Source: a virus (taxonomy: Duplodnaviria; Caudoviricetes). From it: a stretch of 64,000 bases of DNA. Below are positions 11,224 to 57,844 of the stretch, piece by piece. The notes beneath the pieces are model-generated. The model searched no databases, was not told where the DNA came from, and saw only the letters and a program-made list of their open reading frames with translations. Each line of letters starts with the position of its first letter. Position 1 is the first letter of the stretch. The stretch is taken from positions 1 through 64,000 of the IMG/VR virus record IMGVR_UViG_3300033121_001394; one strand, given 5' to 3'. The translations under genes were made by a program, and so were the position numbers.

Positions 11224-11600
11224 AATACAAATCCCTAAAAGGGAAAGAGTTTACTCTTACCTTTGGTAAAAAATGGAAGAATGAAAGTCGTTCTAAGTTT
11301 CAGGCGGCTTGTGCCGAAATTATTAAAACTCGTTACCCGCACGACCAAATTTTAGAAGAATTCTATGTTCCCCATGATAAATTCTACATTGATTTCTTCA
11401 TTCCGGCTAGGGCCATCGCCCTAGAGATTCAAGGGAGGCAGCATGGGGAGTTTGTCAAACATTTCCATAAAACACGCCGAAATTTCATTTCCGCCCAAGA
11501 TCGTGATTTGCGTAAGCAAAAATGGTGCGATCTCAACAAAGTCGCACTTGTGAGTGTATATTCTATTGAAGAACTTAAAGAAAAGTTGGGTGTAGAATGA
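11220..11600 (+). CDS. Vsr/DUF559-like PD-(D/E)XK endonuclease
   Basis: EEFYVP..FYIDFFIP..IALEIQGRQH..QDRDLRKQKWC. Confidence 0.65.
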   Translation: MKYKSLKGKEFTLTFGKKWKNESRSKFQAACAEIIKTRYPHDQILEEFYVPHDKFYIDFFIPARAIALEIQGRQHGEFVKHFHKTRRNFISAQDRDLRKQKWCDLNKVALVSVYSIEELKEKLGVE

Positions 11601-38425: not shown

Positions 38426-38908
38426 ATGGCTAGTAAGTTAAGTTATTCAGTTTGGCGTCCAAATAAGTCTGGTAATGGTTTTGCAGCAACCTTTGATTAT
38501 AGTGATAAGAATCGCTGCTGGTTTGCTGCTGTTGCCCCTCAAAGCGGTGATGGAGAACGAAGTTTTGATTTTAATAAGAAGATTACGGCAAAACTTGGTT
38601 TAAGCGATATCGGGGCGATGCTTAGTGTTCTTTTGGGTCGAACCCAAACGGTAGGGGAAAAGGGTTTATTCCATACCTCGAATAAGGATTCTAAGGATAG
38701 CACCATTATTAATTTACAGGCAAACGAAAATGGTGGCTTCGCCTTTGGTTTAAGTCAAAAGAAGGGTACTGTTTCTTCAAGAGGTGGAGTTAATCTCTTT
38801 CTAGGAGATGCCGTTGTTCTTGCGGAACTATTTCGGCAAACAATTGTATCTATGTGTACCGAAGAGTACACGCCGGGCGGGGCAGGAAATAATAAACAAA
38901 GTGATTAA
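38426..38908 (+). CDS. Putative ssDNA-binding protein (PC4/Whirly-like)
   Basis: FDFNKKITAKLGLSDIG pattern; strong SD AAGGAG; adjacent to the SSAP candidate. Confidence 0.3.
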   Translation: MASKLSYSVWRPNKSGNGFAATFDYSDKNRCWFAAVAPQSGDGERSFDFNKKITAKLGLSDIGAMLSVLLGRTQTVGEKGLFHTSNKDSKDSTIINLQANENGGFAFGLSQKKGTVSSRGGVNLFLGDAVVLAELFRQTIVSMCTEEYTPGGAGNNKQSD

Positions 38909-38940
38909 AATAAAGGGGCCAAACGGCCCCTTATTTATTT
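38909..38940. terminator. Bidirectional Rho-independent terminator at the convergence of the two arms
   Basis: GGGGCC-AAAC-GGCCCC stem flanked by A-rich and T-rich tracts. Confidence 0.85.
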
Positions 38941-39506
38941 TGAGGTCTTACTACGGCAATCCATCCTGTTATATTATGGCCGCTATCAAACGTTGGTTGA
39001 GCTTCAACGTTGATTTGAACAATTTGTCCGTTGGAGTGGAGCCAACCGTAGGAACATATAAAATTTCGTTTTTCCTTAACGGCTGTGTCCCATTCATCAA
39101 TAACTCGCTCTCTATCTTCGTGGGCGACAACATTAACCCAGTTTCTTCCGAGGAAATCTTCTGATGATCTATTGAGTAATTGGCAAGCGGCTGAATTGAC
39201 ATAAATACATTCACCTTCTACGTTACTTTGCCATTCCGCAATTTCTAACGCCGCAATTAAACTTTTGCTGCGTGCTTCTGCTTTGGCAAGTCTATAATCT
39301 ATATTCACTATTTTATCATAAAGACTCTTTCCGCCGTTAGGACCAAGTAAATATAATATTTGTTCAATCTTGTTGATATTGTTAAGTACTTTAGTTAAAG
39401 GTTTGATAACTTTAGATTTAAAAAATAAAACAACAGATACAAGTGTTAAAATGCCCGTACCAATCTTTACAATCAAATCAAAATGACTTATAAGTATATC
39501 TAGCAT
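38931..39506 (-). CDS. Membrane-anchored PAS-domain protein
   Basis: N-terminal TM, PNGGKSL linker, then PAS (W.SN.EG...YVN...C.LL....EDFLG..W...V..EDRERV..EW). Confidence 0.8.
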   Translation of the reverse strand: MLDILISHFDLIVKIGTGILTLVSVVLFFKSKVIKPLTKVLNNINKIEQILYLLGPNGGKSLYDKIVNIDYRLAKAEARSKSLIAALEIAEWQSNVEGECIYVNSAACQLLNRSSEDFLGRNWVNVVAHEDRERVIDEWDTAVKEKRNFICSYGWLHSNGQIVQINVEAQPTFDSGHNITGWIAVVRPQNK

Positions 39507-39530
39507 AATTACGCACCACAGTAATATATA

Positions 39531-39542
39531 CTATATACACAA
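39531..39542 (-). promoter_or_regulatory. Putative late promoter motif TTGTGTATATAG
   Basis: Intergenic; G is 34 nt upstream of the PAS gene start. Confidence 0.6.
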
Positions 39543-39559
39543 TTAAAATTTATTTAAGA

Positions 39560-40261
39560 TTATGTTCGAATAATAGTAGAATATTTAATTCTAAACTCTT
39601 CAAATTGTAATCGCGTATTATACTTTTGCCCGTATTCAGAATGAAATTTTTTATGACACCCAAAACACAAAGTGATACCATTATTTAAATCATATCTTAG
39701 ATGTAAATTACAATGAAAAGATTCTAGATGATGAGCAACAATTCTTTGTTTAGATTCACAAATAACACAAGTTCTTTTGTCTCTATCTTTTACACCTGTT
39801 TTCCAATCAAATTCTTTTTGACAAAATTTGCGTTCTCGTTTTTTCTCACCAAGTTTACCATATTTCAATCTATTACTGTTAGACAATTCTAATAAACAGC
39901 CACAACTTAAAACCCTATGGTGTTTTAATAAAGAACCTCGTCCTACCCAAGAATTACCGCAATCACATTTGGCTTCCCATAATCGAGTACCACCTTTGTG
40001 ATTGGGGGCGGGTTTCAAAGCAATCAATTTGCCAGAACGTATACCTTTTAAATCATTCCTTAAATACCGACAATCACCAAAACCACAAGAGGTTGTTAAT
40101 CCTTGTCGTAACGAATTTTGTTTCACACTAGTTATTTTACCACATTCGCACCAACATAACCACTTTCTATCCAAATCTGTCTTAAAATCTTCAAAAATCA
40201 CTAAAAGTTTTCCAAATCTTTGTCCTAATAAATTAATTTTTTTATGTTCGGGCCATCCCAT
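39560..40261 (-). mobile_element. HNH homing endonuclease with two N-terminal repeats
   Basis: GQRFGKLLV..CECG repeats; CVIC..AHHL..NNGITLC..CH. Confidence 0.8.
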
Positions 40262-40262
40262 A

Positions 40263-40634
40263 TTATTTACCTTCTATAGTTAAATGAGTCCATTTGTCAC
40301 ATTTTCCTGTTTGAGTTTTACAAATTAACAAACAATTACAAGGAGCGTTGTTTTTATTAGGATCGGGCCTACTACATTGCGAAGCACTAGTCATCTTCCC
40401 ATCTTTCTTGGTAGAAAATTCACAATTACGACAAATATCCCTATTCTTTTTAATATCCTCATCGCTATAAGATTTATCTCCGGTAATGCATTTAGCGATA
40501 CCCATCGCCCCCTCTTTTAACCATTCCACCTTATTAGGTTGTTGTTTAAATGCTTCTAAAAGATTATGAGCAACATGTTTCGCTCCACCCTGAAACATTG
40601 GTGTTGGTTGCCCTTTATTACAATTACATCCCAT
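40263..40634 (-). CDS. Small Cys-rich protein
   Basis: MGCNCN, CRNC, CNCLLIC; AGGAG SD. Confidence 0.6.
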   Translation of the reverse strand: MGCNCNKGQPTPMFQGGAKHVAHNLLEAFKQQPNKVEWLKEGAMGIAKCITGDKSYSDEDIKKNRDICRNCEFSTKKDGKMTSASQCSRPDPNKNNAPCNCLLICKTQTGKCDKWTHLTIEGK

Positions 40635-40644
40635 TATTAACTCC

Positions 40645-42915
40645 TTAAGTACATCCAGTTGATCCTAAAAAGCGTGAATCACTAGCTCCTATACCTGAAG
40701 CATACCCAATTTGAGGATAACCACAACTAAAAGTTGCTACACTATTTTCCCAATTTTTAATATAAGTGTATGTTTTTCCATTAGTTGGAATACTAGTAGG
40801 ACATTCTCCCCAGATTGGCTTATTATTATTAGTGGTTATAGTAGAATTACAACTGCCAGTCCAATTATATGGAGCAAGAGTACACGCATTAAAACTTACT
40901 ACTCCACTGGATACACGACTTTCTACATAATTACTAGAACCATATCCACATAAATCTAAAGAAGTATTAAAAGTATAACTTCCAAAACCACCGCATTCTT
41001 CTCCGTAATTGACACTTCGAGGTTCACATGTTGCTCCGTCTCCATCACATCCAAAATTACAAGCCCCAAGACTAAATGTGCCAGTAGGAACACTAGGTGT
41101 TGAAGGAAAATTTTGACAACTAAAACAGTAAGTGTTATTAGTGGGCGATCCGGCATCGATCCAAACTCCAGATGTACAAAATGTCCCACCGCAAGCAGAA
41201 CTAACAGTATTGTTTTCTGTAAAACAAACCCCCGTTCCACCATTTATAGTACATCCACAGGTAGTAGATATTCGTGTTAAACTTACATTTAAGGAGTGAG
41301 AATTATTACCATTCCAACATAAACCTGCTGAATTACAACAGCTAAAACTTCCTCCGCAAACACCGGGTGGTAAACCGCATTGTCCAATATTGATAAAATC
41401 ATATAATCCAATAGTATTGCTAGTATCCCACCCACATTTTTGTCTAGTGCTTGTATTTGATTCTGAAAGCGAATAAGTAAGAGTTTGTGTAAATGGATGA
41501 TGTACTCTCGAACTCAAACAACAAGTTCCCGCATTTTCTTCTGCTGTAAAACCACATTCACAACAAGCAGTACCGCAATCAATGTCTATCCTGCTACACA
41601 CGCTACCATTTGTACAAACTCCACTTGCTCTTAATGGAGAAATAACTGGTCTAAATAAAGCTTTTAAAGTAATACCAGTGGGTAAATAATCATAATATTC
41701 TGGATAAACTAATCCTAAATTTTCAATACGATCCCAATTATCGCACCGTGGACAAGAATTATAAGTAATACTACTACAATTAACACCGTCTGGTGCAGTT
41801 TTACATCCTCCCGGTAAACCAAAATAGGCAGAACCTCCGGGTATTTCTAATATATTAGCAATAGTTCCCGCCATAATATCTTCGGGAATAAAATTCCACG
41901 GATGTGTTGAACAAAAAACACCTAAACCTCTTTGGGCTATATATGAAGAAACGGGCCGAGTTCTTGGAATATTTTCTTCTTTAATTTTTGGTGATGCAGG
42001 ATCTAAATATTGACACCATCCGTATTGATTAGAAATTAATGGATTACCCGGATTGCAAAATTCCGTATATCCCGGTAAACCTACATCTTGCCCATATTGA
42101 AATAATGGTCCAGCATCAGGATTATTAATATCTACGATCATAAAGGGAACCTTTACAAGCATTGGTATATCACAATCTGGATGTAAGTTACTTTCACAAA
42201 TATATAGAATAGGTTGATTAATAACAAAATCGGCTGCGGGAGTATAAAAATCTTTCCAATAATTATTATTTAATAAAGAATTTCCTTCTTGATTAAAAGG
42301 GTGTGGATAATTTGAACCAACTCCATTTTTACACCGATATACAGTAGAACAAGGGCATCGTTGACATGCATAGTACCAAGTAGTTTTACATACAAAACTA
42401 GAACAGCCATATGAAATTAACCAACCATTATCTACTACTTTTTCACCACCGCAATTTAATAGAGAATCAGCACCTAAAGTACGACTACCAGCGGGAACAC
42501 AGTGGGTTAATTTGGGATCATTAAAAATTACGTCATCTGTAGTCCAATTACATCGTCTACGAATAAAAGATTGTAAATCAACAGAACCATTTAATAAACT
42601 TAAAGGTCGATCAAAATTAATCAGAGGTTCTTTATAGGAATAATTAAAGCGAGTAGGGGCGACCGTGGAATATTCATATGATCCCCCATTAATACTCGTT
42701 TGATCATCTAACCATACCTCATGAAATAAATCTGATCCGGTGGTAGCAATAAAAGGATTAAACGTAGAACTATTTAAAGGATTAGTGAACAAAACTCCAG
42801 TAATAACCAGAACCCCCTTTGTCAGTATTAATAAATCCAGTAGATAATAGACCAGTACCATTAATAATACCACTCGCAATATATGTAAATAATTTATTTT
42901 GTACATTAATATCAA
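40645..42915 (-). CDS. Large Cys-rich putative tail-associated protein (N-terminus uncertain)
   Basis: 756-aa ORF with about 49 Cys by hand count; overlaps the upstream ORF by 134 nt. Confidence 0.6.
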   Translation of the reverse strand: MILMYKINYLHILRVVLLMVLVYYLLDLLILTKGVLVITGVLFTNPLNSSTFNPFIATTGSDLFHEVWLDDQTSINGGSYEYSTVAPTRFNYSYKEPLINFDRPLSLLNGSVDLQSFIRRRCNWTTDDVIFNDPKLTHCVPAGSRTLGADSLLNCGGEKVVDNGWLISYGCSSFVCKTTWYYACQRCPCSTVYRCKNGVGSNYPHPFNQEGNSLLNNNYWKDFYTPAADFVINQPILYICESNLHPDCDIPMLVKVPFMIVDINNPDAGPLFQYGQDVGLPGYTEFCNPGNPLISNQYGWCQYLDPASPKIKEENIPRTRPVSSYIAQRGLGVFCSTHPWNFIPEDIMAGTIANILEIPGGSAYFGLPGGCKTAPDGVNCSSITYNSCPRCDNWDRIENLGLVYPEYYDYLPTGITLKALFRPVISPLRASGVCTNGSVCSRIDIDCGTACCECGFTAEENAGTCCLSSRVHHPFTQTLTYSLSESNTSTRQKCGWDTSNTIGLYDFINIGQCGLPPGVCGGSFSCCNSAGLCWNGNNSHSLNVSLTRISTTCGCTINGGTGVCFTENNTVSSACGGTFCTSGVWIDAGSPTNNTYCFSCQNFPSTPSVPTGTFSLGACNFGCDGDGATCEPRSVNYGEECGGFGSYTFNTSLDLCGYGSSNYVESRVSSGVVSFNACTLAPYNWTGSCNSTITTNNNKPIWGECPTSIPTNGKTYTYIKNWENSVATFSCGYPQIGYASGIGASDSRFLGSTGCT

Positions 42916-45139
42916 AATATGAATAATTTAATGGAATATTGGGGTCTTTACTAATATTTACAATATTTTTAGTACATCCTTGTATAGCGGTAAACCACAT
43001 ATTATTATTACGAGAATAATAATAAGTTCCATAAGGTTCTACGTGAGGTAATTTAGAATCAAAAATACGGCAAATAGGAGGGGTGTGGGCGGCTATAGTA
43101 GTAGATGGATTATTGGCATAAATATCAATAAATGGTGAATCTGGATTATCGGGACTGGATTTAAATAAAGAATTATATGGTTTGGGGCCAACAATAATAT
43201 CTGCTCCACTCCATAAACCACTATCTGCAATAGGACCATCAGTAGAACTAAAATATCCACCAGCTACTTGTTCAAAAAGTTCTGAAGAAACATTAATAAT
43301 TTTAGAAGCTGGAACCGATCCGGCATCAATACTACCTAAAGCAAAAGCAAAAATATTGCAACCATAATTTTTAACTGTTAAATTATTAACAGCGTTAACA
43401 AAATCTCCAACTGTTTTACCTGAACAATTATAAATAACCGTAAAACAATCACAACCTGTACCTAAAGGTCCATAATATCCACTAACAAAAGGTGTCAAAG
43501 TAGAAGGATCAATTTCAATATAAAATGATAAATCATCAAATGCCGCAGTACCTACATAAAAAGGTACGGGGCGGCGAACACAAAAATTAATCTCAATTTC
43601 CTTAGTTTCTAACCATGTGCCTTTTGTTTTAATAGTACCCTGTGGTTTATAATCAAAACCAATACGCTCTGATGCATAGGAGCCGGGTCGATTTAAAGAC
43701 AACCAACTCTGCCCACCCGCTGGATTTAAAGCATCATTAAATGGGAATTCATATGCTTTATGAACATCACTTTCAATATTATTATAATATGATCCAAATG
43801 GTCCCCAAGGAATATTTTGATGAAATTGAGGAATAAATAATTCTGTAATACAACTACATGGAACTCCACTGTTATAACAAGTATTACCAGAACCAAAATT
43901 ACAATCTGGTAATGCGTATAATTTTCTATCAGTATGATAATCGTATTCTAATCTACCTTCTTGACCAAAGACAAAATAATTAGGAGACAAAGAATAACAT
44001 TGTTGTCCTAAAAGAAAAACTCTATCTAAATTTGCCCAAGGAATATTAGCAATTGGTGTCCCACCCGGACCAATATAAGCATAACCAGAAACTACAGACG
44101 GACCCAAACTTTCCCATCCAATTGTAGCATTTGGTCCTAATTTAGCTCCTCTTTGTGGACAACATTGTAAAGAGGAATCAAAAAAAGCTGGTCCGCCCGG
44201 CCAATCTAAATCTTCATAAGGACAATCATTACCTGTACCTTTAACTGTATAATTACTATGAAAACCTAAATAAGTTTCACCTGTATCATAAATACCATAT
44301 TTTCCAGAAGCAAATGATATATTTGAAATAGAAGCCGGAACTAAAGATTGTTCATAAGGAATAATATATGGTTGCTTAATTCCACATAAATCTCCACCAA
44401 AAGTAATATCAAAAACTAAATTAGTACTTGTATTACCTATATAGGTATTATGTGTAACGGTTATACCACTTCCAATCCCAGAAATAAGAGCATTTCTTAT
44501 ATTATTAGCAAAAAGACTTGGAGTACTATTATAATTAGCATAGGGTGTTATAGTATTATTAAAAGAAAAATTTATTCTACTATTTCTAGATCCTAGCGTT
44601 TTAGTAGAAGCAGTTGTAAAAGTAAGAACGCCAGTTGAAACCAGTGTCGCGGCATTTTCTCCATCATAACTAAAAGTGTTTGGTACCGACCAATTAAAAG
44701 ATGGAAAATTATTAACAAATAATTGAAGTTGATTAGATGTTTTACCAATTAAATTAAAACCACTAGAACCCACTGTTGGTTCAGTAATTGTTAATGTGGT
44801 ATCATCGATGGTAATTTCTGCTGGAAAATTACTGCCGCCATAAGAAAAAGAAATTAAATTAGCAATTTTAGTAGTTGTTAAACCACTTGTTGTTATTCTT
44901 AATTGTTGACACTCACATACATTATTAGCAGTTCCATCGCATCTAGATTCAGAATTAACATATTTTCTATTTTTTAATTGATCCTGATCCCAATCGGCAC
45001 ATAAGGCTGTTTTGTAATCCAATGACATGTCACAGGGCACAGCTTCCCAAAATAAACCACCTTCATCACAACAACACTCGTTAAGTTTGTTATTAGATGT
45101 TAAAAGTAAATGATTGGAATAATATAAATAACCTGACAT
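42782..45139 (-). CDS. Large Cys-containing putative tail-associated protein
   Basis: 785 aa; N-terminal LYY..LL..NECCC; beta-rich middle region. Confidence 0.6.
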   Translation of the reverse strand: MSGYLYYSNHLLLTSNNKLNECCCDEGGLFWEAVPCDMSLDYKTALCADWDQDQLKNRKYVNSESRCDGTANNVCECQQLRITTSGLTTTKIANLISFSYGGSNFPAEITIDDTTLTITEPTVGSSGFNLIGKTSNQLQLFVNNFPSFNWSVPNTFSYDGENAATLVSTGVLTFTTASTKTLGSRNSRINFSFNNTITPYANYNSTPSLFANNIRNALISGIGSGITVTHNTYIGNTSTNLVFDITFGGDLCGIKQPYIIPYEQSLVPASISNISFASGKYGIYDTGETYLGFHSNYTVKGTGNDCPYEDLDWPGGPAFFDSSLQCCPQRGAKLGPNATIGWESLGPSVVSGYAYIGPGGTPIANIPWANLDRVFLLGQQCYSLSPNYFVFGQEGRLEYDYHTDRKLYALPDCNFGSGNTCYNSGVPCSCITELFIPQFHQNIPWGPFGSYYNNIESDVHKAYEFPFNDALNPAGGQSWLSLNRPGSYASERIGFDYKPQGTIKTKGTWLETKEIEINFCVRRPVPFYVGTAAFDDLSFYIEIDPSTLTPFVSGYYGPLGTGCDCFTVIYNCSGKTVGDFVNAVNNLTVKNYGCNIFAFALGSIDAGSVPASKIINVSSELFEQVAGGYFSSTDGPIADSGLWSGADIIVGPKPYNSLFKSSPDNPDSPFIDIYANNPSTTIAAHTPPICRIFDSKLPHVEPYGTYYYSRNNNMWFTAIQGCTKNIVNISKDPNIPLNYSYFDINVQNKLFTYIASGIINGTGLLSTGFINTDKGGSGYYWSFVH

Positions 45140-50766: not shown

Positions 50767-52847
50767 TAAGCACCTACGCCTGTGGCAACAATATTAAGAT
50801 TTGTGGTAAAAAGTCCATTTTTCCAATCCCAATTTTCAGTTTTGCCCACAATAAACCATCCGCTATTATATACCCCTAAGTCAGCAACACCACTTGCAAC
50901 ATATCCAGAAGCAATGGCTCTAGGAGTATTTCTATCGGTAAATGCCCAATAGCCTCCGGCTTTGGGGTACATGGTAAGGGTAACATTAAGAGTTCTACGA
51001 TATTCAGTTTTTGTTCCAATATTTTGAATAATGGGACCAGAAGAACGCCCCGGAATGATTTGTATAGCAATAACATCTTGTGGATAAGTTTCATCAATAG
51101 TCATGTCAGCAACAGCTACCTGAGAATTTATAGGTGCTAATGTATTATTAAATGTGTAACTATATCCGATAGATCCGCCCGGACGATTTACGGTAACATT
51201 TTTACTTACAACTCTACTATTTAAATTAGGCGTTGTCCCACCCAATTTTGAATATTCACCACTTGCTCTTGCAAAAAGCAAACCCTGAATAGTATTCCAT
51301 CCAGTTTCCGCATTAGAAAATCGAGTATTAGGATTATCATTACTAGCAACTCCTTGTATAGTACCATTCACAGTAACCGTGCAACCATATCCAGCCGTAG
51401 TTGATGTATTATTTTGAGAAGATAAATCAACTGTATAATTATCTAAATAACTTCCATCAACAGAACCAGTCGTAAGGAAATTGTAGCCAAAAGAGTAGTT
51501 AATACTACCTAAAGGTTTATTATAGGAGATAGATTTATTAATGGGCACACTGCTATAATTACCACTGCTGTTTGTAGAACCAAAAAGGGTGCCGCCATAG
51601 GCAAAGGCTAAATCCCTAAACAAGGGTTGTAATATCTGATAGCCACTAACAGCGTTGGCAAAACGCTCATTATTCATTTGATAAAAACTATCGTCTGTTA
51701 TTCCTTGAATTGTTCCATTAATAGTAACGATGGGAACATCGTTACCAAAAGTAAAGGAAACATCATAATTATGACGGTAAATACTACCACTCATATTTAC
51801 AAAGTTCATAGAATAATCAATTGTACCTAAATTTTGATTTTCTGTATAATTTGTAGTAACAGGACTACCATATGCTCCAACTTGGGCAGCCAGTAAACCG
51901 CTTCGTAAATTCCAATAGGTTTGGGCAGCGATTAGTTTATTAGCAGGGATATTATCTGGGTCTAATCCTTGAATGTTACCATTAGCAGTAATTCTTTCTA
52001 TCGTTGGCCCATTATCTTCATCTAATGGATATTCAGTGGTTTTTTGCACATTTACTTGTTCAATATAAGTACGATTACTCATTATAAAACGTTGAGCAAT
52101 TGAATATGATCCGCCCACTTTGTCTATAGCTTCCTCAGTAATTAAATTATACTTACCAGTGGGGCTAACTCCAGTGGGGAGATTAAAATAGTTAATTTCC
52201 ATTCCTACGGAGTTAATACGCCCACTAACCCAAACCTTGGCGTTTCGCCATGCTTCTTGTCCTAAAATCGCCCCACTGACATAGTTGGTAAAACCTACAG
52301 CAGAGACATTACGAGACACTTCTATAATGTCTGAACCATCATCTCTTTCTTTAATATTCCAAGTGTCAGAAACGCTACTTAAAAATAGACCGGAAGCCGA
52401 GAGGGGAATTATATCCTCGTAGGGCACAGTGCCGCTACGATTAAATGTCTTAGCTTCTAATTCTATAGAGTATTTAGAGAGGGTTGTCCAAGTACCCGGC
52501 TCAAAAGAAATACTACGCAATATAGGATAAGTTTCTACGCGGGTAAGCCCACTTGGAAAATAAGATAGTTTGAACCCCGGAGTTGTTAGGGCCTCTCGCA
52601 ATAATTCTTGTTTTGCAAGCAAAGCATCATGTTGTTCAAGATCAGTATTAAATACTTCATTAGCAGGATCAGCAACACCAGTGGCAAAACCTGTTGAAGT
52701 TGGCGAACCCCGTTCTGGCAATAAAGTACCCTGTAAACTTATTCTGTAGTTTGAGTTTAAAGGTCGTCCATCAGGTGTAAAATTACATTCTTTATTAAAA
52801 CTAATAAAGGGAGCAGGTATAAGTTTTTTATTATCAATTAAAATCAA
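50766..52847 (-). CDS. Putative distal tail / hub protein with internal ~100-aa repeats
   Basis: Immediately downstream of the tape measure; recurring (V/I)TxNG(T/N)IQG and G(S/T)IxYS motifs. Confidence 0.5.
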   Translation of the reverse strand: MILIDNKKLIPAPFISFNKECNFTPDGRPLNSNYRISLQGTLLPERGSPTSTGFATGVADPANEVFNTDLEQHDALLAKQELLREALTTPGFKLSYFPSGLTRVETYPILRSISFEPGTWTTLSKYSIELEAKTFNRSGTVPYEDIIPLSASGLFLSSVSDTWNIKERDDGSDIIEVSRNVSAVGFTNYVSGAILGQEAWRNAKVWVSGRINSVGMEINYFNLPTGVSPTGKYNLITEEAIDKVGGSYSIAQRFIMSNRTYIEQVNVQKTTEYPLDEDNGPTIERITANGNIQGLDPDNIPANKLIAAQTYWNLRSGLLAAQVGAYGSPVTTNYTENQNLGTIDYSMNFVNMSGSIYRHNYDVSFTFGNDVPIVTINGTIQGITDDSFYQMNNERFANAVSGYQILQPLFRDLAFAYGGTLFGSTNSSGNYSSVPINKSISYNKPLGSINYSFGYNFLTTGSVDGSYLDNYTVDLSSQNNTSTTAGYGCTVTVNGTIQGVASNDNPNTRFSNAETGWNTIQGLLFARASGEYSKLGGTTPNLNSRVVSKNVTVNRPGGSIGYSYTFNNTLAPINSQVAVADMTIDETYPQDVIAIQIIPGRSSGPIIQNIGTKTEYRRTLNVTLTMYPKAGGYWAFTDRNTPRAIASGYVASGVADLGVYNSGWFIVGKTENWDWKNGLFTTNLNIVATGVGA

Positions 52848-55800
52848 GTTGTGGTTCCTATAGAAGCTAAAATCTTACTGGAAACTTCTGGGTCAGATCT
52901 AAAAACTTCTGCTAGTTTTGCGGAAATATTTTTTAAAATACTAGCTTGTAAAGTTGGTCCAACCATTGCTAAAACATCAGGAGCCGCAAGTGCTACATTA
53001 ACTTGTACCGGAGCAATCTCTAAAGAATTAGATTTCTCAGCCAAAGATTCTAATTTACTTACAATATTATTCCCAATATCAACTAATGTTGAAGAATTAT
53101 CTGAAATCATGCTCAATTTATTTAAAGATTCATTTCCTCCATCAAAAGATTGATCCATAAATACTTTTTGTGGTTTATCAGTAAATAATTGATCTAAAAT
53201 CTTTCTAATATCAGTTAGTGGTTCTAATTGAGTATCAATTGATCGTAATAAAGGAATTTGTTCCTGATAAAATTCTTGTTCTAAAGGAATTAGAGAAGCT
53301 TGGGCTTTAAGAAGATTAATTTGATCATTGCGTAATTGTTTTTCTAAATTGGCTGAATCTTGAGCTTGTTGCTTTAAATCGGCCAATTGTTGTGCGACAT
53401 TACCCCTTTCATCTTTACCAGTAAAAGCTGATTTGAGGCGAGCCACCGTTTCAATACCAATTTTTTCTTGAATATTACCTAATAAAGCCGAACCAGTAAT
53501 ACCATTACCTAATTCAACATTACCAATAAGATTTAAACCCTGTTGAACTTGATCAAATTCTTTGCGATTTAATTTATTCAAAGCCCCTGTTGGATTTTGC
53601 AAACCATCTAAAGCCGCAAATTTATTAATTGATTTAAATATATTTTTAATATCTTTGTCTGCTAAACCAGAAATAGTTTGACCCGCACTACGTAAGTCAT
53701 TTCGTAAAGTAGTAAAAGCTTCTTTTAAAATATCAGTTGCTTGAGCCGCACTAGCAATACGAGTATCAAATTCTGCTAATCTCTGATTAGCCTCTTGTTG
53801 TTTATTGACAAATTCAATATTAGCTTGGTTTGCACTTTCTGCAAATCCTTTTTTAGCTTCAAAAGATATATCACTTCCTTGGCCTAATCTATTAAATTTA
53901 ACTTCTCTATTACGAACTTTAGCTGAATTTTGTAAATCATTAATAAATGAATTGTTTGAATCAAAAGATGTAGTCTGAGCAGCTTGAGTTAAAGTCCGAG
54001 CATTTGCTACCCCAGAACGTAAAACTCCAACATTAGCAAAAAATTGTGTATTTTGAGCGTTTCTAAGTGCCCCAGAATTTTGCAAACTCTTAATTCTAGC
54101 GTTTAAATCAAATAATGCTTGATTAGATTGACGTGCAGCACTTGCTAAATCATTTTCAAGTTTTAATTTTTGATTTTCAACTTCAATACTATTAAGAACA
54201 GCTTGACGTGCTTTTTCTTGAATAGCAATTAATTCAGACTGATTATCTTTGAGGAAGGAAGTAATATCATTAGATTTAAATAAATCAGTAAATAAATCAG
54301 TAAAACTCTTCCCACTAACAATTTTTAGAGTTTCAAAAACATCTTGAAATTGATTACTAAATTCAGTACGAATTTTATTATCATTAAATAACTCGCCAAC
54401 GACTTCCGCAAAAGATTTTTCTCCAATAACGGTATTGCTAGGCACTACTTCATTAGTTCCAGTGCGATTTAAAGTAAATTGTCTAAAAATACCTCGAATA
54501 TTATCTTTAGATAAAAAGGTTGCCAAATTTTGAGCGGTATTTGTTAGTTCAGCATTAAAACGATTAAACGAATCAAGTCCTGCGGACTTGAAGAAAGAGG
54601 AAGAATTAGTGGGCACTTTGACTTGTGCTTGAGCATTAATATCAGAACTAAATCCAGCTAATCTATCTAGATTCTTACTAATACTGTTCGTTATTTTTTC
54701 AAAACTATTATTAACTTTAAGAATTAAATTCTTAAAAGGATCTTCTAACGAATTAAAAATTTCATCAATAAATTTTTTGATTTCTGAAGTTGTTATATTT
54801 AATTTAGCTAATATTGTATTAATTGTTCCTTCTACATCTTTAGCATTTTTAACAATAGATAAAGATCCAATTTGTTTTTTCAAATCTTCTACTGCTGATT
54901 TTTGAATCAAGGCAGCATTGGCATTTGGACCTAAATTTTTAACAGCTTTATCAATAGCATTATTTCGAATAAGACGTAACGTATTATTAAAAGTATCAAT
55001 TAATTTGATATCTAAAATACTAGAAGGTTTATCCCCGTTAGGTAAATTGCCACTTAACAAGTTACTAAAACTTTCTGGTCTATTAATAGGAGAACGATCA
55101 AAAAATACACTTGATGCTTTACGAATTAATCGAGGAGTATTGTCAAAAAACTCTTGAATTCCTGATTTTGAGGGATTTAATAATTGATTACCAGCAAGTT
55201 CCAATTTTGCCAAAGGATCTTTAGCTCTATCCAAATTGATAGAAATCAAATTTTGGGTATTTTCTTTGATAGCACTAGTTAAACTTAAAATAGTAGCAGT
55301 TAAACCACCAACAATAGCACCGGGCACACCAAATAAACTACCTCCTAAAACTGCTCCTCCTACTCCAGAAGTAATAGCACTACCAACATTTGTTGTTTTT
55401 AAATTATTGGTGATATTTTTTTCAGGAATAATATTTGATAAAGAACTAGAAATTGCTGTAGCACCACCAACAATTAATGGTAAAGAATCAATTAAATTTT
55501 CTTTAGAGAGTAAAGATCGTTTATTAGTAGCATCTTTTTTACCAAATACTTGAGTTAAACCGCTTCGAAAATTAGATGTAAATTTAGGTAAAACACTAGC
55601 TGATACAATACCAACAAATAAGGGGGCCAATGGAACTAAAATCTTACTTAGTCTTGTAAATTCAATAGCAAGATTAGCTACATCTTTAATAAGAGATTTT
55701 ATAGAATCTGTTTGAAAAAATTCAATAACAAAGTCGGATACAGATTCTTTGAGTCTATTAAATGAAATACCTACATCGTCAATACGTTTAACAATACTTT

Positions 55801-57844
55801 TATCAAAAGAACCATTAATAGATTCTAAAGTTTTATCAATATCACTTTTTCCACCACCTAAAGTTTTTTGACGCTGTTTTTCTAGTTCTCGTAGGGTAGC
55901 AATTAATCGTGATACCTGACGATCACCTGTTAATTGTTGAGCAATATTATTAATCTGTTTAGAATTAAAACGAGAATCAATAGAAAATAATATTTTAGAT
56001 AATTGTCTAAATTGATCAACTACTCCTTTATCTACATCGACACCTAAACTACTAAGTAATTTTTGTGAACGAGGATTAAGTAATTGGGTGACACCACTCT
56101 TAAAAAACGTACCTAAAGTTTCAGCAGTTTCACGGGTTGAAGAACGTAGTAATGAAAAGAGTTCAACGAATTCTTTTAAAGAACCGTTTGATTGAGCAAA
56201 GACTGCACCACCTCTTTTAACAGCTTCGAAAATGTCACCTGATTCAACGGCAAAATCAGCAGCAAACTGATTTACAGTATCTAAAATTTCACCAGTGTCA
56301 TCTAATCCTTTGTTAAACTGACCAAAAATAGCAATTAAACCTTCGGTTGTTGATTTTAAATCACCAAAGGTAGCCGCAAGTGGTACTTTTGCTAAATCGG
56401 TAGCAACTTTTCTAAGTTGATCTGGACTATTAAAACCGGCCTGTGCAAACGTTTGGACTGCATCAGCAATGTCAGTAATTGAAGTACCCGTTATAACACC
56501 GGCGTTACGAACGGAGTCTCCAATATCTTTTAATTGAGCCTGAGTTGAAGTAGTAACCTGTTCAACTTTAGTCATTGCCGCTTCAAACTTTAAAGCCTCT
56601 TGTGTGGCATTTTGGAATGCACTAACAATTCTAACAATACCAAAGGAGCCAACAAGGAATGCCCCGTAACGTTTAAATGCCAATGCCGCCGCACCGCCGA
56701 ATCCTTCAATTCCACCTTGGGCAGCTTTAGCATTTTTTTCTACTTCTTTTAAATCAGATTTTAATTGTCTAGCATCTCTTATTAATTGTTGATTAGCAAC
56801 TCTAGTGTTTTTATCTTTTATTTGACTACTGGCAATATCTCCAGCATTAGCACTAACAAATCGTTGAAATTTTGGATCAACTTGAACTCCTAAACTTTTA
56901 GCTTTAGCTAAAAGATCATTAAGTCGCTCTTGGCGAGCAACCACTTTTGCCGTTTCTTTTTCTAATTGTTTCTCAGCCGCAACATTTGCCCTACGTTGTG
57001 CCTCTTCTGCTTTCCCTCTTTGTTCAATAGCACCCACAAATTTATCTGCTTCAAACTTCCGTTCTCTTTGTTTATCAGCGATAATTCTATCAGCAGTATC
57101 ATCTACAATTTTTCTTTTTTCCGCTTCATTTTTTGCTTGTTTTCTTTTCGTTTCCTCGGCAATTTTAATTTCTGCCTCTTGTCTCGCTTTCGCAGCAGCT
57201 AAAGTTGATTGTAAATCTAATTCTCTATTTCTTGCTTGTTCCGAAGCATATTTATTATAAGCATCAGAAATTGCTTTTTCTCGTAACTTATTATTACGAA
57301 TTTCATCATCAGTAATTGCTTTATTTGTTTTTTTCGCTGTATCTTCTAAATCTTTTAAACCCTGATTTAAATTAGATATAAATTGGGCTTTAGCAATTTT
57401 ATTAGCAGGACTATTAAAAATATCTGAAGAAAATATAGCCTTCAAAGTTGCTTGTGCTTGTTTGACTTGTTCTTCATTACCCGAAGCAAGACGGGATAAA
57501 ACTCCTCTTGCAACACGCTCTAAATTAAGCATGGCTTTAGAAGCATTTTGTGCCCCGGCTGGCAAAGCCTCAGTAAAACTAGAAACTACTGGATTCGCTG
57601 CCCCAAACACCTTTTTAAGTCTTGTGACCGTATCAACTAACTCTCCAAAACCAATATTGGTACTTTTAATATCTTTGCTGAGTTGAGTGACATCAAAACC
57701 TTTTAAATTTATTTTTCCCAACCCCTTTTCAATTCCATCAGATACATTGCTAGCAATTTGATTAGATAACCTTGAGAATGCCTCATTGGTATTCTTGATA
57801 GAATTAATCGTAAGATCAAATGGAATATTTATATTTTGGGCCAT
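52844..57844 (-). CDS. Tail tape measure protein (TP901-family core)
   Basis: 1666 aa, helical; FEAAMTKVEQV, FAQAGF, FAADFAVESGDIFEAVKRGGAVF; located after tube and chaperone genes. Confidence 0.9.
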   Translation of the reverse strand: MAQNINIPFDLTINSIKNTNEAFSRLSNQIASNVSDGIEKGLGKINLKGFDVTQLSKDIKSTNIGFGELVDTVTRLKKVFGAANPVVSSFTEALPAGAQNASKAMLNLERVARGVLSRLASGNEEQVKQAQATLKAIFSSDIFNSPANKIAKAQFISNLNQGLKDLEDTAKKTNKAITDDEIRNNKLREKAISDAYNKYASEQARNRELDLQSTLAAAKARQEAEIKIAEETKRKQAKNEAEKRKIVDDTADRIIADKQRERKFEADKFVGAIEQRGKAEEAQRRANVAAEKQLEKETAKVVARQERLNDLLAKAKSLGVQVDPKFQRFVSANAGDIASSQIKDKNTRVANQQLIRDARQLKSDLKEVEKNAKAAQGGIEGFGGAAALAFKRYGAFLVGSFGIVRIVSAFQNATQEALKFEAAMTKVEQVTTSTQAQLKDIGDSVRNAGVITGTSITDIADAVQTFAQAGFNSPDQLRKVATDLAKVPLAATFGDLKSTTEGLIAIFGQFNKGLDDTGEILDTVNQFAADFAVESGDIFEAVKRGGAVFAQSNGSLKEFVELFSLLRSSTRETAETLGTFFKSGVTQLLNPRSQKLLSSLGVDVDKGVVDQFRQLSKILFSIDSRFNSKQINNIAQQLTGDRQVSRLIATLRELEKQRQKTLGGGKSDIDKTLESINGSFDKSIVKRIDDVGISFNRLKESVSDFVIEFFQTDSIKSLIKDVANLAIEFTRLSKILVPLAPLFVGIVSASVLPKFTSNFRSGLTQVFGKKDATNKRSLLSKENLIDSLPLIVGGATAISSSLSNIIPEKNITNNLKTTNVGSAITSGVGGAVLGGSLFGVPGAIVGGLTATILSLTSAIKENTQNLISINLDRAKDPLAKLELAGNQLLNPSKSGIQEFFDNTPRLIRKASSVFFDRSPINRPESFSNLLSGNLPNGDKPSSILDIKLIDTFNNTLRLIRNNAIDKAVKNLGPNANAALIQKSAVEDLKKQIGSLSIVKNAKDVEGTINTILAKLNITTSEIKKFIDEIFNSLEDPFKNLILKVNNSFEKITNSISKNLDRLAGFSSDINAQAQVKVPTNSSSFFKSAGLDSFNRFNAELTNTAQNLATFLSKDNIRGIFRQFTLNRTGTNEVVPSNTVIGEKSFAEVVGELFNDNKIRTEFSNQFQDVFETLKIVSGKSFTDLFTDLFKSNDITSFLKDNQSELIAIQEKARQAVLNSIEVENQKLKLENDLASAARQSNQALFDLNARIKSLQNSGALRNAQNTQFFANVGVLRSGVANARTLTQAAQTTSFDSNNSFINDLQNSAKVRNREVKFNRLGQGSDISFEAKKGFAESANQANIEFVNKQQEANQRLAEFDTRIASAAQATDILKEAFTTLRNDLRSAGQTISGLADKDIKNIFKSINKFAALDGLQNPTGALNKLNRKEFDQVQQGLNLIGNVELGNGITGSALLGNIQEKIGIETVARLKSAFTGKDERGNVAQQLADLKQQAQDSANLEKQLRNDQINLLKAQASLIPLEQEFYQEQIPLLRSIDTQLEPLTDIRKILDQLFTDKPQKVFMDQSFDGGNESLNKLSMISDNSSTLVDIGNNIVSKLESLAEKSNSLEIAPVQVNVALAAPDVLAMVGPTLQASILKNISAKLAEVFRSDPEVSSKILASIGTTT

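Follow-up and report, generated by a model that had tools for sequence, protein, structure and literature searches.

A PAS-tailed one-helix membrane protein encoded at the end of a phage structural arm, and its possible role in lysis

Focusing on a 64,000-nucleotide stretch of DNA from an uncultured long-tailed phage of the Caudoviricetes (the window hereafter; positions 1 to 64,000 of the IMG/VR record IMGVR_UViG_3300033121_001394), we analysed a minus-strand gene (38931-39506) whose 191-residue product joins a single transmembrane (TM) helix to a C-terminal PAS domain. Profile comparisons place this protein as a PAS-tailed member of the phrog_9869 family of one-helix membrane proteins, and we tentatively propose that it takes part in host lysis. 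The analysis followed up a reading made from the letters and their open reading frames alone (the sequence-only reading), the claims of which are taken up where the results bear on them.

The PAS gene and its transcription unit

The open reading frame (ORF) of the PAS gene runs uninterrupted from an ATG start over 191 codons, and the nine close homologues of its product (40-97% identity, 190-221 residues) all display the full architecture. Residues 11-29 (39420-39476, minus strand) form the sole hydrophobic segment of the protein, with a Kyte-Doolittle 19-residue maximum of 2.33, and are predicted to be its single TM helix. In all ten close homologues, the N-terminal flank of this helix is acidic or neutral and the C-terminal flank is rich in Lys and Arg (KSKVIKPLTK in the window protein). 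Because basic residues cluster on the C-terminal side, the positive-inside rule predicts an N-out/C-in topology, with the PAS domain in the cytoplasm. The following segment, a putative cytoplasmic helical linker (residues 30-88; 39243-39419, minus strand), was delineated on an AlphaFold2 model built from ten homologues and on the hhalign alignment of residues 1-85 with the stand-alone, PAS-less proteins described below. The model draws a long helix over residues 9-54, a kink over residues 55-61 at PNGG and a second helix over residues 62-87 that runs into the PAS domain, with a predicted local distance difference test (pLDDT) score of 53-72. This linker carries the PNGGKSLYD signature (residues 56-64; 39315-39341, minus strand), in which P56, N57, G58, G59, S61 and D64 (PNGGxSxxD) are invariant across the ten close homologues.

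The PAS domain (residues 89-188; 38943-39242, minus strand) ends the protein. Pfam recognised PAS_3 (PF08447; E 1.5e-13, 51.2 bits against a cut-off of 25.6) within residues 83-188 of 191, and PAS (PF00989; E 1.7e-13, 51.0 bits against a cut-off of 22.6), and found no other domain in the protein. The model is confident over residues 90-190 (pLDDT 88-95) and follows the strand and helix order of PAS, with strands at residues 90-94, 100-103, 149-156, 162-173 and 179-188 and helices between them, forming a five-stranded antiparallel sheet. The best Foldseek matches in the PDB were all PAS domains, including 3lyx and those of hERG, ARNT (PAS-B), LOV and NifL (E 1e-8 to 1e-7), with TM-scores of 0.7-0.8 when normalised to the PAS targets, while a profile search of PDB sequences led to ARNT PAS-B and to the PAS of a diguanylate cyclase. 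At the place of the LOV cysteine motif (G-x-N-C-R-F-L), judged by eye without formal alignment, the protein reads G-R-N-W-V-N-V, and W123, which occupies the position of the cysteine, is 95% conserved. The ORF list, Pfam, the model, Foldseek and hydropathy all agree with the layout proposed by the sequence-only reading, namely one TM helix, a PNGGKSL linker and a complete terminal PAS domain.

The region upstream of the gene (39507-39560, minus strand), delineated from the relatives and from positional enrichment, contains a GTGTATA box (39534-39540), located 34 nt 5' of the ATG, and a GGTG Shine-Dalgarno-like element (39514-39517). The total count of GTGTATA was at chance level; its placement is not random, as chance would put 0.33 sense-strand copies 20-60 nt ahead of a gene start, and 8 of the 13 copies in the 85.6-kb contig are so placed (P = 2e-10), at 39540, 46291, 57899, 61186, 64286, 67005 and 70528 on the minus strand and at 11554 on the plus strand. 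Seven of these eight positioned boxes fall in the structural arm, where the box lies 27-55 nt upstream of gene starts and often has AA(A) before it. GTGTATA is probably the late promoter element of this phage. In addition, the 55 nt upstream of the PAS gene are nearly invariant in six relatives, with or without an HNH insertion, for proteins that are 76-81% identical. Since the placement of the box is non-random and the upstream region near-invariant, the gene very probably has its own promoter of the structural-gene type, in line with the late motif ascribed to it from the letters alone.

At its other end, the gene meets a bidirectional intrinsic terminator with an 8-bp G+C stem (38913-38932), detected by a two-strand terminator scan, which overlaps the stop codon. 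This hairpin divides the replication arm, ending at 38908, from the convergent minus-strand arm, which contains the tape measure gene (52844-57844, minus strand) together with large Cys-rich tail-fibre-like genes. The PAS gene is accordingly the last gene of the morphogenesis arm, as the sequence-only reading held. On the plus strand, an ORF of 118 residues (38808-39164) runs across the terminator and over the 3' half of the PAS gene; nothing supports it and it is probably spurious.

The TM-PNGG module, its family and its genomic contexts

With a profile of residues 1-85 as query, and no length limit, we recovered 207 clusters at 50% identity (E <= 1e-3) from 1.84 billion representative proteins; 148 of them were used for domain and PHROG counts. 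About 94 of these 148 members, some two thirds, have 175-290 residues, and PAS_3 was matched in 83 of the 148. About 50 others, some one third, of 74-160 residues, lack a PAS domain and carry a coiled coil behind the TM helix and the same motif. Across the 94 PAS-bearing and 50 PAS-less clusters, N57, G59 and D64 are conserved at 100% and P56, G58 and S61 at 89-99%, so that the PNGGxSxxD motif is conserved beyond any position of the PAS domain. Aligned with hhalign, the N-termini of the PAS-type and stand-alone proteins matched at 99.3% probability (E 1e-20, 82 columns), and at the level of sequence they are clearly homologous. A PHROG of unknown function, phrog_9869, was matched by 112 of the 148 members (best E 1.4e-22). 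Its module begins with a short N-terminus, predicted to lie outside, and a TM helix with a basic patch behind it; two helices follow, the first in the cytoplasm, with the PNGGxSxxD turn between them.

Two further fusions extend this picture, as one of the 148 members bears Amidase_2 and one a cupin. P0131 (364 residues) joins the TM-PNGG module to a PAS-like region and a cupin, and P0054 (355 residues) joins it to an Amidase_2-type domain; judging from its length and sequence, P0054 is presumably the single Amidase_2-positive member, and a comparison of P0054 with PDB sequences gave nothing useful. Since the same module is fused to amidase-type or to PAS-like and cupin domains, it behaves as an exchangeable membrane anchor. 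A FastTree phylogeny of the module required 22 changes between PAS and no PAS, against about 40 with shuffled labels, with a resolution too poor to count gains and losses of the domain.

The available searches indicate a virus-specific family. The two PAS-bearing neighbour clusters in the ESM Atlas are 100% viral, and a pattern scan derived from the close-homologue alignment found no relative in bacterial genomes, returning only two viral loci. Among 50,697 phage records, neither megablast and tblastn with the window nor tblastn with two short members gave a match. The PAS-bearing proteins alone amount to about 100 clusters at 50% identity, from phages of low as well as high G+C content.

The sequence-only reading had noted a resemblance of the TM and NGGxSL part to small holin-like phage membrane proteins, and in substance this resemblance holds. 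Stand-alone genes lie beside an endolysin-type gene in three of the six contexts examined: P0079 overlaps the stop of a Rv2525c_GlyHyd-like gene, and a GH25 gene follows P0177 at a distance of 200 nt and P0168, from a Catenulispora prophage, four genes further on. The three remaining contexts, all at the end of a late arm, showed no recognisable lysin. Furthermore, phrog_15431, which is annotated as holin, was matched by six of the 148 members (best E 4.7e-16), and an endolysin PHROG by one.

The PAS-bearing genes occupy other surroundings. In the lineage of the window, the gene stands at the end of the tail arm, a placement conserved in close relatives. In L005 it follows the large terminase gene and that of a 215-residue protein that has a TM helix and a lipoprotein-like signal, and in L002 and L010 it follows a conserved membrane protein of 225-254 residues. 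In L027 it is next to genes for a multi-TM protein and a pectate-lyase-like tailspike, and for P0009 it lies among small early-type and DNA-metabolism genes, near those of a methyltransferase and a pyrimidine-dimer excision enzyme. A membrane protein of 215-254 residues is encoded just upstream of the PAS gene at four loci (L002:4973-5737, L010:8783-9460, L005:8439-9086 and L027:5263-6000), with one 126-residue ORF intervening in L010. Those of L002 and L010 are homologues that share 34% identity (E 6e-23), a signal-like N-terminus and TM helices at the C-terminal end; that of L005 has a lipobox-like signal (LAAC) and a C-terminal TM helix, a layout that recalls unimolecular spanins. The upstream membrane protein may be a conserved partner of the PAS protein.

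In the window, the gene immediately upstream encodes an HNH homing endonuclease (39560-40261, minus strand; phrog_374, E 3e-22), an insertion that forms no part of the system and is absent from the relatives L014-L018, in which the PAS gene directly follows a Cys-rich gene of 125 residues. The counterpart of this gene in the window, a neighbour kept in L014-L018, encodes a Cys-rich protein of 123 residues with no TM helix (40263-40634, minus strand) and no Pfam or PHROG match. The HNH cassette (39560-40265 of the window) was inserted within the last codons of this gene (compare L014:2500-2600 and L016:5577-5954). The relatives end in ...KWTHLTIKST* and the window protein in ...KWTHLTIEGK*, taken from the cassette sequence, while the former tail and stop of the Cys-rich gene now end the HNH ORF (...STIIRT*). 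The cassette therefore supplies a replacement C-terminus to the Cys-rich gene and leaves the downstream promoter-like region unharmed. Further upstream (40645-45139, minus strand), two Cys-rich tail-fibre-like ORFs of 785 and 756 residues overlap by 134 nt and match one 1506-residue protein of L016 over its residues 1-779 (87% identity) and 781-1505 (80% identity), respectively. Because both match one intact L016 protein, this tail-fibre-like gene is split by a frameshift in the window, whether real, programmed or an assembly error. Across the window and seven homologous loci, Pfam and PHROG searches on the neighbours recognised only HNH, large terminase, metallophosphoesterase, a helix-turn-helix (HTH) regulator and tape measure proteins, and PDB sequence searches with three downstream neighbours gave nothing useful.

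Comparison with known lysis and PAS proteins

Canonical holins have three transmembrane domains (TMDs) with an N-out/C-in topology, two TMDs with N-in/C-in, or one TMD with N-in/C-out and a periplasmic domain. With its one hydrophobic segment and predicted N-out/C-in topology, the 191-residue protein falls outside these classes I-III. In phage T4, the class III holin T and the antiholin RI are lysis proteins with a single TM helix, and the timing of lysis is set by their soluble domain in response to a signal. T has an N-in/C-out topology and a periplasmic domain, whereas the soluble PAS domain is predicted to be cytoplasmic; RI has an N-terminal signal-arrest-release (SAR) domain and acts in the periplasm, and neither T nor RI has sequence similarity to the window protein. 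RI-like (SAR, periplasmic) antiholin and spanin-like readings were ruled out on the charge distribution, which predicts N-out/C-in.

The nearest homologues of the module with a lysis annotation are the stand-alone phrog_9869/phrog_15431 proteins of uncultured phages and prophages, which share a homologous N-terminal module and an identical PNGGxSxxD motif with the window protein and differ from it in having 74-160 residues, a coiled-coil tail in place of PAS and, often, GH25 or Rv2525c-like lysin genes nearby. Among characterised proteins, a comparable one is LysF1b of F1-cluster mycobacteriophages (Pfam DUF2746), a one-TMD N-out/C-in holin with basic residues after the TMD, the activity of which has been shown by deletion, complementation and triggering with energy poisons (PMC13056207). 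Waterfoul gp32 and Ms6 gp5 are relatives of LysF1b (PMC9339283). The five DUF2746 mycobacteriophage genes that we fetched each lie directly after LysA-LysB-holin, and gp27 of the Streptomyces phage Lannister (L028) lies directly before an endolysin gene.

LysF1b and the window protein share an order of N-terminal TM helix, basic patch, polar motif ending in L-x-D, and helix, in which the motif of LysF1b (NSHxTNLRDDID) is similar in kind and position to that of the phrog_9869 module (PNGGsSLrDxvD). Both belong to phage-only families, and the PAS-less relatives of the window protein lie by endolysin genes as LysF1b does. They differ in their tails, as the LysF1b class has a charged coiled coil, for a total of 92-150 residues, and the window protein a folded PAS domain instead. 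They also differ in their surroundings, LysF1b-type genes having LysA, LysB and a two-TMD or four-TMD partner nearby and the PAS gene none of these, and in G+C content, the genome of the PAS phage, at 36% G+C, being outside the actinobacterial range. When the stand-alone family was aligned with DUF2746, hhalign gave an in-register match at 62% probability (E 7e-5), and a broader alignment gave 41% (E 3e-4). With a hidden Markov model (HMM) of DUF2746, P0105 scored 24.6 bits and P0154 17.9 bits, against at most 7.5 for shuffled and 14.4 for reversed controls. All five DUF2746 proteins matched phrog_404 at E 1e-23 to 1e-28, and seven of the 148 family members also matched this PHROG. Labels attached to DUF2746-type proteins are diverse: they read 'minor tail protein' in cluster A mycobacteriophages (L029, MissWhite gp30), some Streptomyces phages have 'tail needle protein' and others, by the endolysin, 'hypothetical protein', and phrog_404 itself is labelled 'minor tail protein' though it includes LysF1b-type lysis genes.

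The releasin of phage Mu also has one TMD, with a structure and topology like those of LysF1b, and acts in lysis by freeing a SAR endolysin without being triggered by energy poisons (PMC13056207); unlike the window protein it has no PAS domain, and the two were set side by side by description only. The nearest phage precedent for the PAS domain is VqmA(Phage) of vibriophage VP882, a PAS protein that senses a small molecule for the lysis decision (PMC8284805). VqmA(Phage) is soluble, regulates transcription through an HTH output at the lysogeny-lysis switch, and has only the PAS fold in common with the membrane protein described here. In design, the stand-alone module corresponds to the one-TMD N-out/C-in holins of which LysF1b is the type, and the 191-residue protein may be described as a holin-like phage membrane protein with one TMD and a PAS tail.

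Candidate functions

The best reading of these observations is a PAS-regulated lysis protein, to which we give a probability of roughly 40%. The membrane topology, the role in lysis of the PAS-bearing members and any sensing by their PAS domain are what we infer in that reading. Late transcription of the gene, alongside the structural genes, would start from a promoter-like box of its own. The protein would insert N-out/C-in in the membrane and, as the stand-alone module probably does, would help to permeabilise it or set the time of permeabilisation. The PAS domain would be its regulatory part in the cytoplasm, where the stand-alone proteins have their charged coiled-coil tail, and may act by dimerising, by binding a partner or by binding a small ligand.

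Several results weigh against this proposal. None of seven endolysin Pfam families, and no second holin-like gene, was found in the 85.6-kb contig, which is about 53% complete, and no recognisable lysis gene or second holin-like gene lies beside any PAS-bearing homologue, the contexts of which vary between phages. In the window, no two-TMD partner like LysF1a is adjacent to the PAS gene, as its neighbours have no TM helix, and the phrog_15431 profile found nothing in two PAS-bearing contigs. The window protein itself matches phrog_9869 weakly (E 0.012 and E 3e-4). On the side of DUF2746, the hhalign probability is borderline (41-62%), and the Pfam PF10874 HMM matched neither the window protein, nor the 148 members (E <= 1e-3), nor 40 short members (E <= 5). 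Pfam on the N-terminal 85 residues gave only noise, phrog_9869 found nothing in five DUF2746-bearing mycobacteriophages, and the PAS-type N-termini alone found nothing in DUF2746 by hhalign. Some DUF2746 relatives, moreover, are found in the midst of tail genes and bear the annotation of minor tail protein. Finally, no cofactor signature is conserved in the PAS family, and C100 is not kept in the wider family.

The missing lysis neighbours are weak evidence, because nearly all neighbours lack any family match. The sequence evidence for homology to DUF2746 is mixed. The comparison of the N-terminus with holins and DUF2746, suggested with the sequence-only reading, yielded a borderline in-register alignment for the stand-alone family and no match to the Pfam model, so that the holin-like character was retained in substance and membership of DUF2746 was not. 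DUF2746/LysF1b is best treated as the closest known functional analogue of the 191-residue protein and not its family, and by sequence possibly its remote relative. The search of homologue neighbourhoods for endolysins was similarly divided, with a positive outcome for the PAS-less members and none for the PAS-bearing ones. The signal-gated lysis timer or antiholin first imagined draws on the lysis context of the PAS-less relatives; the missing link to lysis genes, put forward with it as a refuting observation, applies locally, to the contig for the seven endolysin families sought and to the surroundings of the PAS-bearing members. As for the PAS domain, ligand sensing is on sequence grounds no likelier than dimerisation or partner binding, because the nearest PAS domains by sequence are of the interaction type and a conserved cofactor signature is lacking.

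The same two features of the PAS domain, with ARNT PAS-B as nearest interaction-type relative, also favour the alternative that survives best, an unlikely one in our view, in which a membrane-tethered PAS protein acts on a partner outside lysis. This partner would be a phage protein or a host PAS kinase, cyclase or chemoreceptor-like protein, for which the protein would serve as decoy or modulator, and the N-terminal module would then be merely a membrane anchor and oligomerisation stalk. The varying contexts of the PAS genes resemble those of an accessory or 'moron' gene, with here its own promoter-like box and terminator, and the lack of lysis genes nearby is consistent with it. On the other hand, a late-type signal common to structural genes would be an odd time for rewiring host signalling, and it is the PNGGxSxxD module, not the PAS domain, that is most conserved and that alone sits in lysis cassettes. 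The lack of bacterial-genome relatives in the pattern scan also speaks against this alternative, and for the dominant-negative decoy of host PAS kinases put forward by the sequence-only reading we found no support.

Two other alternatives appear improbable. The protein could be a tail- or infection-associated minor virion or assembly protein, the hydrophobic N-terminus of which acts in tail assembly or DNA entry. Its position as last gene after the tape measure and giant tail-fibre-like genes, kept in close relatives, is compatible with such a role, as are the DUF2746-like relatives amid minor tail genes of cluster A mycobacteriophages and the label of phrog_404. These 'minor tail protein' labels are positional, however, phrog_404 including LysF1b-type genes placed after LysA-LysB-holin, and PAS-bearing members lie outside tail modules in other phages. 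We know, besides, of no role for a cytoplasmic-type PAS domain in virions. Equally improbable is a superinfection-exclusion or other envelope-modifying membrane protein that blocks later infections or defence triggers. The protein is indeed a small single-pass membrane protein with its own transcription unit, in a contig with few other membrane proteins. Proteins of superinfection exclusion are usually made early or from prophages, whereas the PAS gene carries the structural-gene box, and this explanation leaves the lysis-cassette context of the PAS-less relatives unaccounted for.

That the protein is the decayed relic of a sensor kinase captured from a host, without its output domain, is excluded for practical purposes. 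A TM helix, linker and PAS domain are a common N-terminal layout of histidine kinases, and HAMP and histidine-kinase N-termini occur among the Atlas structure neighbours of residues 1-88. Against this, about 94 clusters end within a few residues after the PAS domain, the Atlas clusters are virus-only, the window protein ends 3 residues past the PAS domain with its stop codon inside the terminator and the next gene on the other strand, no HisKA/HATPase_c or remnants lie downstream of PAS, the search without length limit returned no longer fused forms among its 150 best matches, and the pattern scan found no bacterial relatives.

Within the reading of a PAS-regulated lysis protein, a more specific version can be formulated, in which a PAS domain grafted on a one-helix holin-type module makes a holin, or a regulator of holins, gated by a ligand, by redox state or by a partner, and so ties the lysis clock to the internal state of the infected cell. 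We regard this version as doubtful. Holins are thought to time lysis mainly through their own accumulation and membrane energisation. To our knowledge, a holin that carries a dedicated cytoplasmic sensor domain has yet to be described, and the signal inputs that we know of (lysis inhibition by RI and T in T4, the S107/S105 ratio in lambda) use no classical sensor domain. Our literature search found no account of PAS fused to a holin-type protein, nor of the family of the 191-residue protein.

Even without a role in lysis, these proteins represent a large, virus-only PAS family with no function described. If the gated version were true, they would provide a concrete and testable case of lysis, or of another late membrane event, gated by a cytoplasmic cue, and a natural modular switch for phage engineering, in which a membrane anchor is combined with an exchangeable coiled coil, PAS, amidase or cupin domain.

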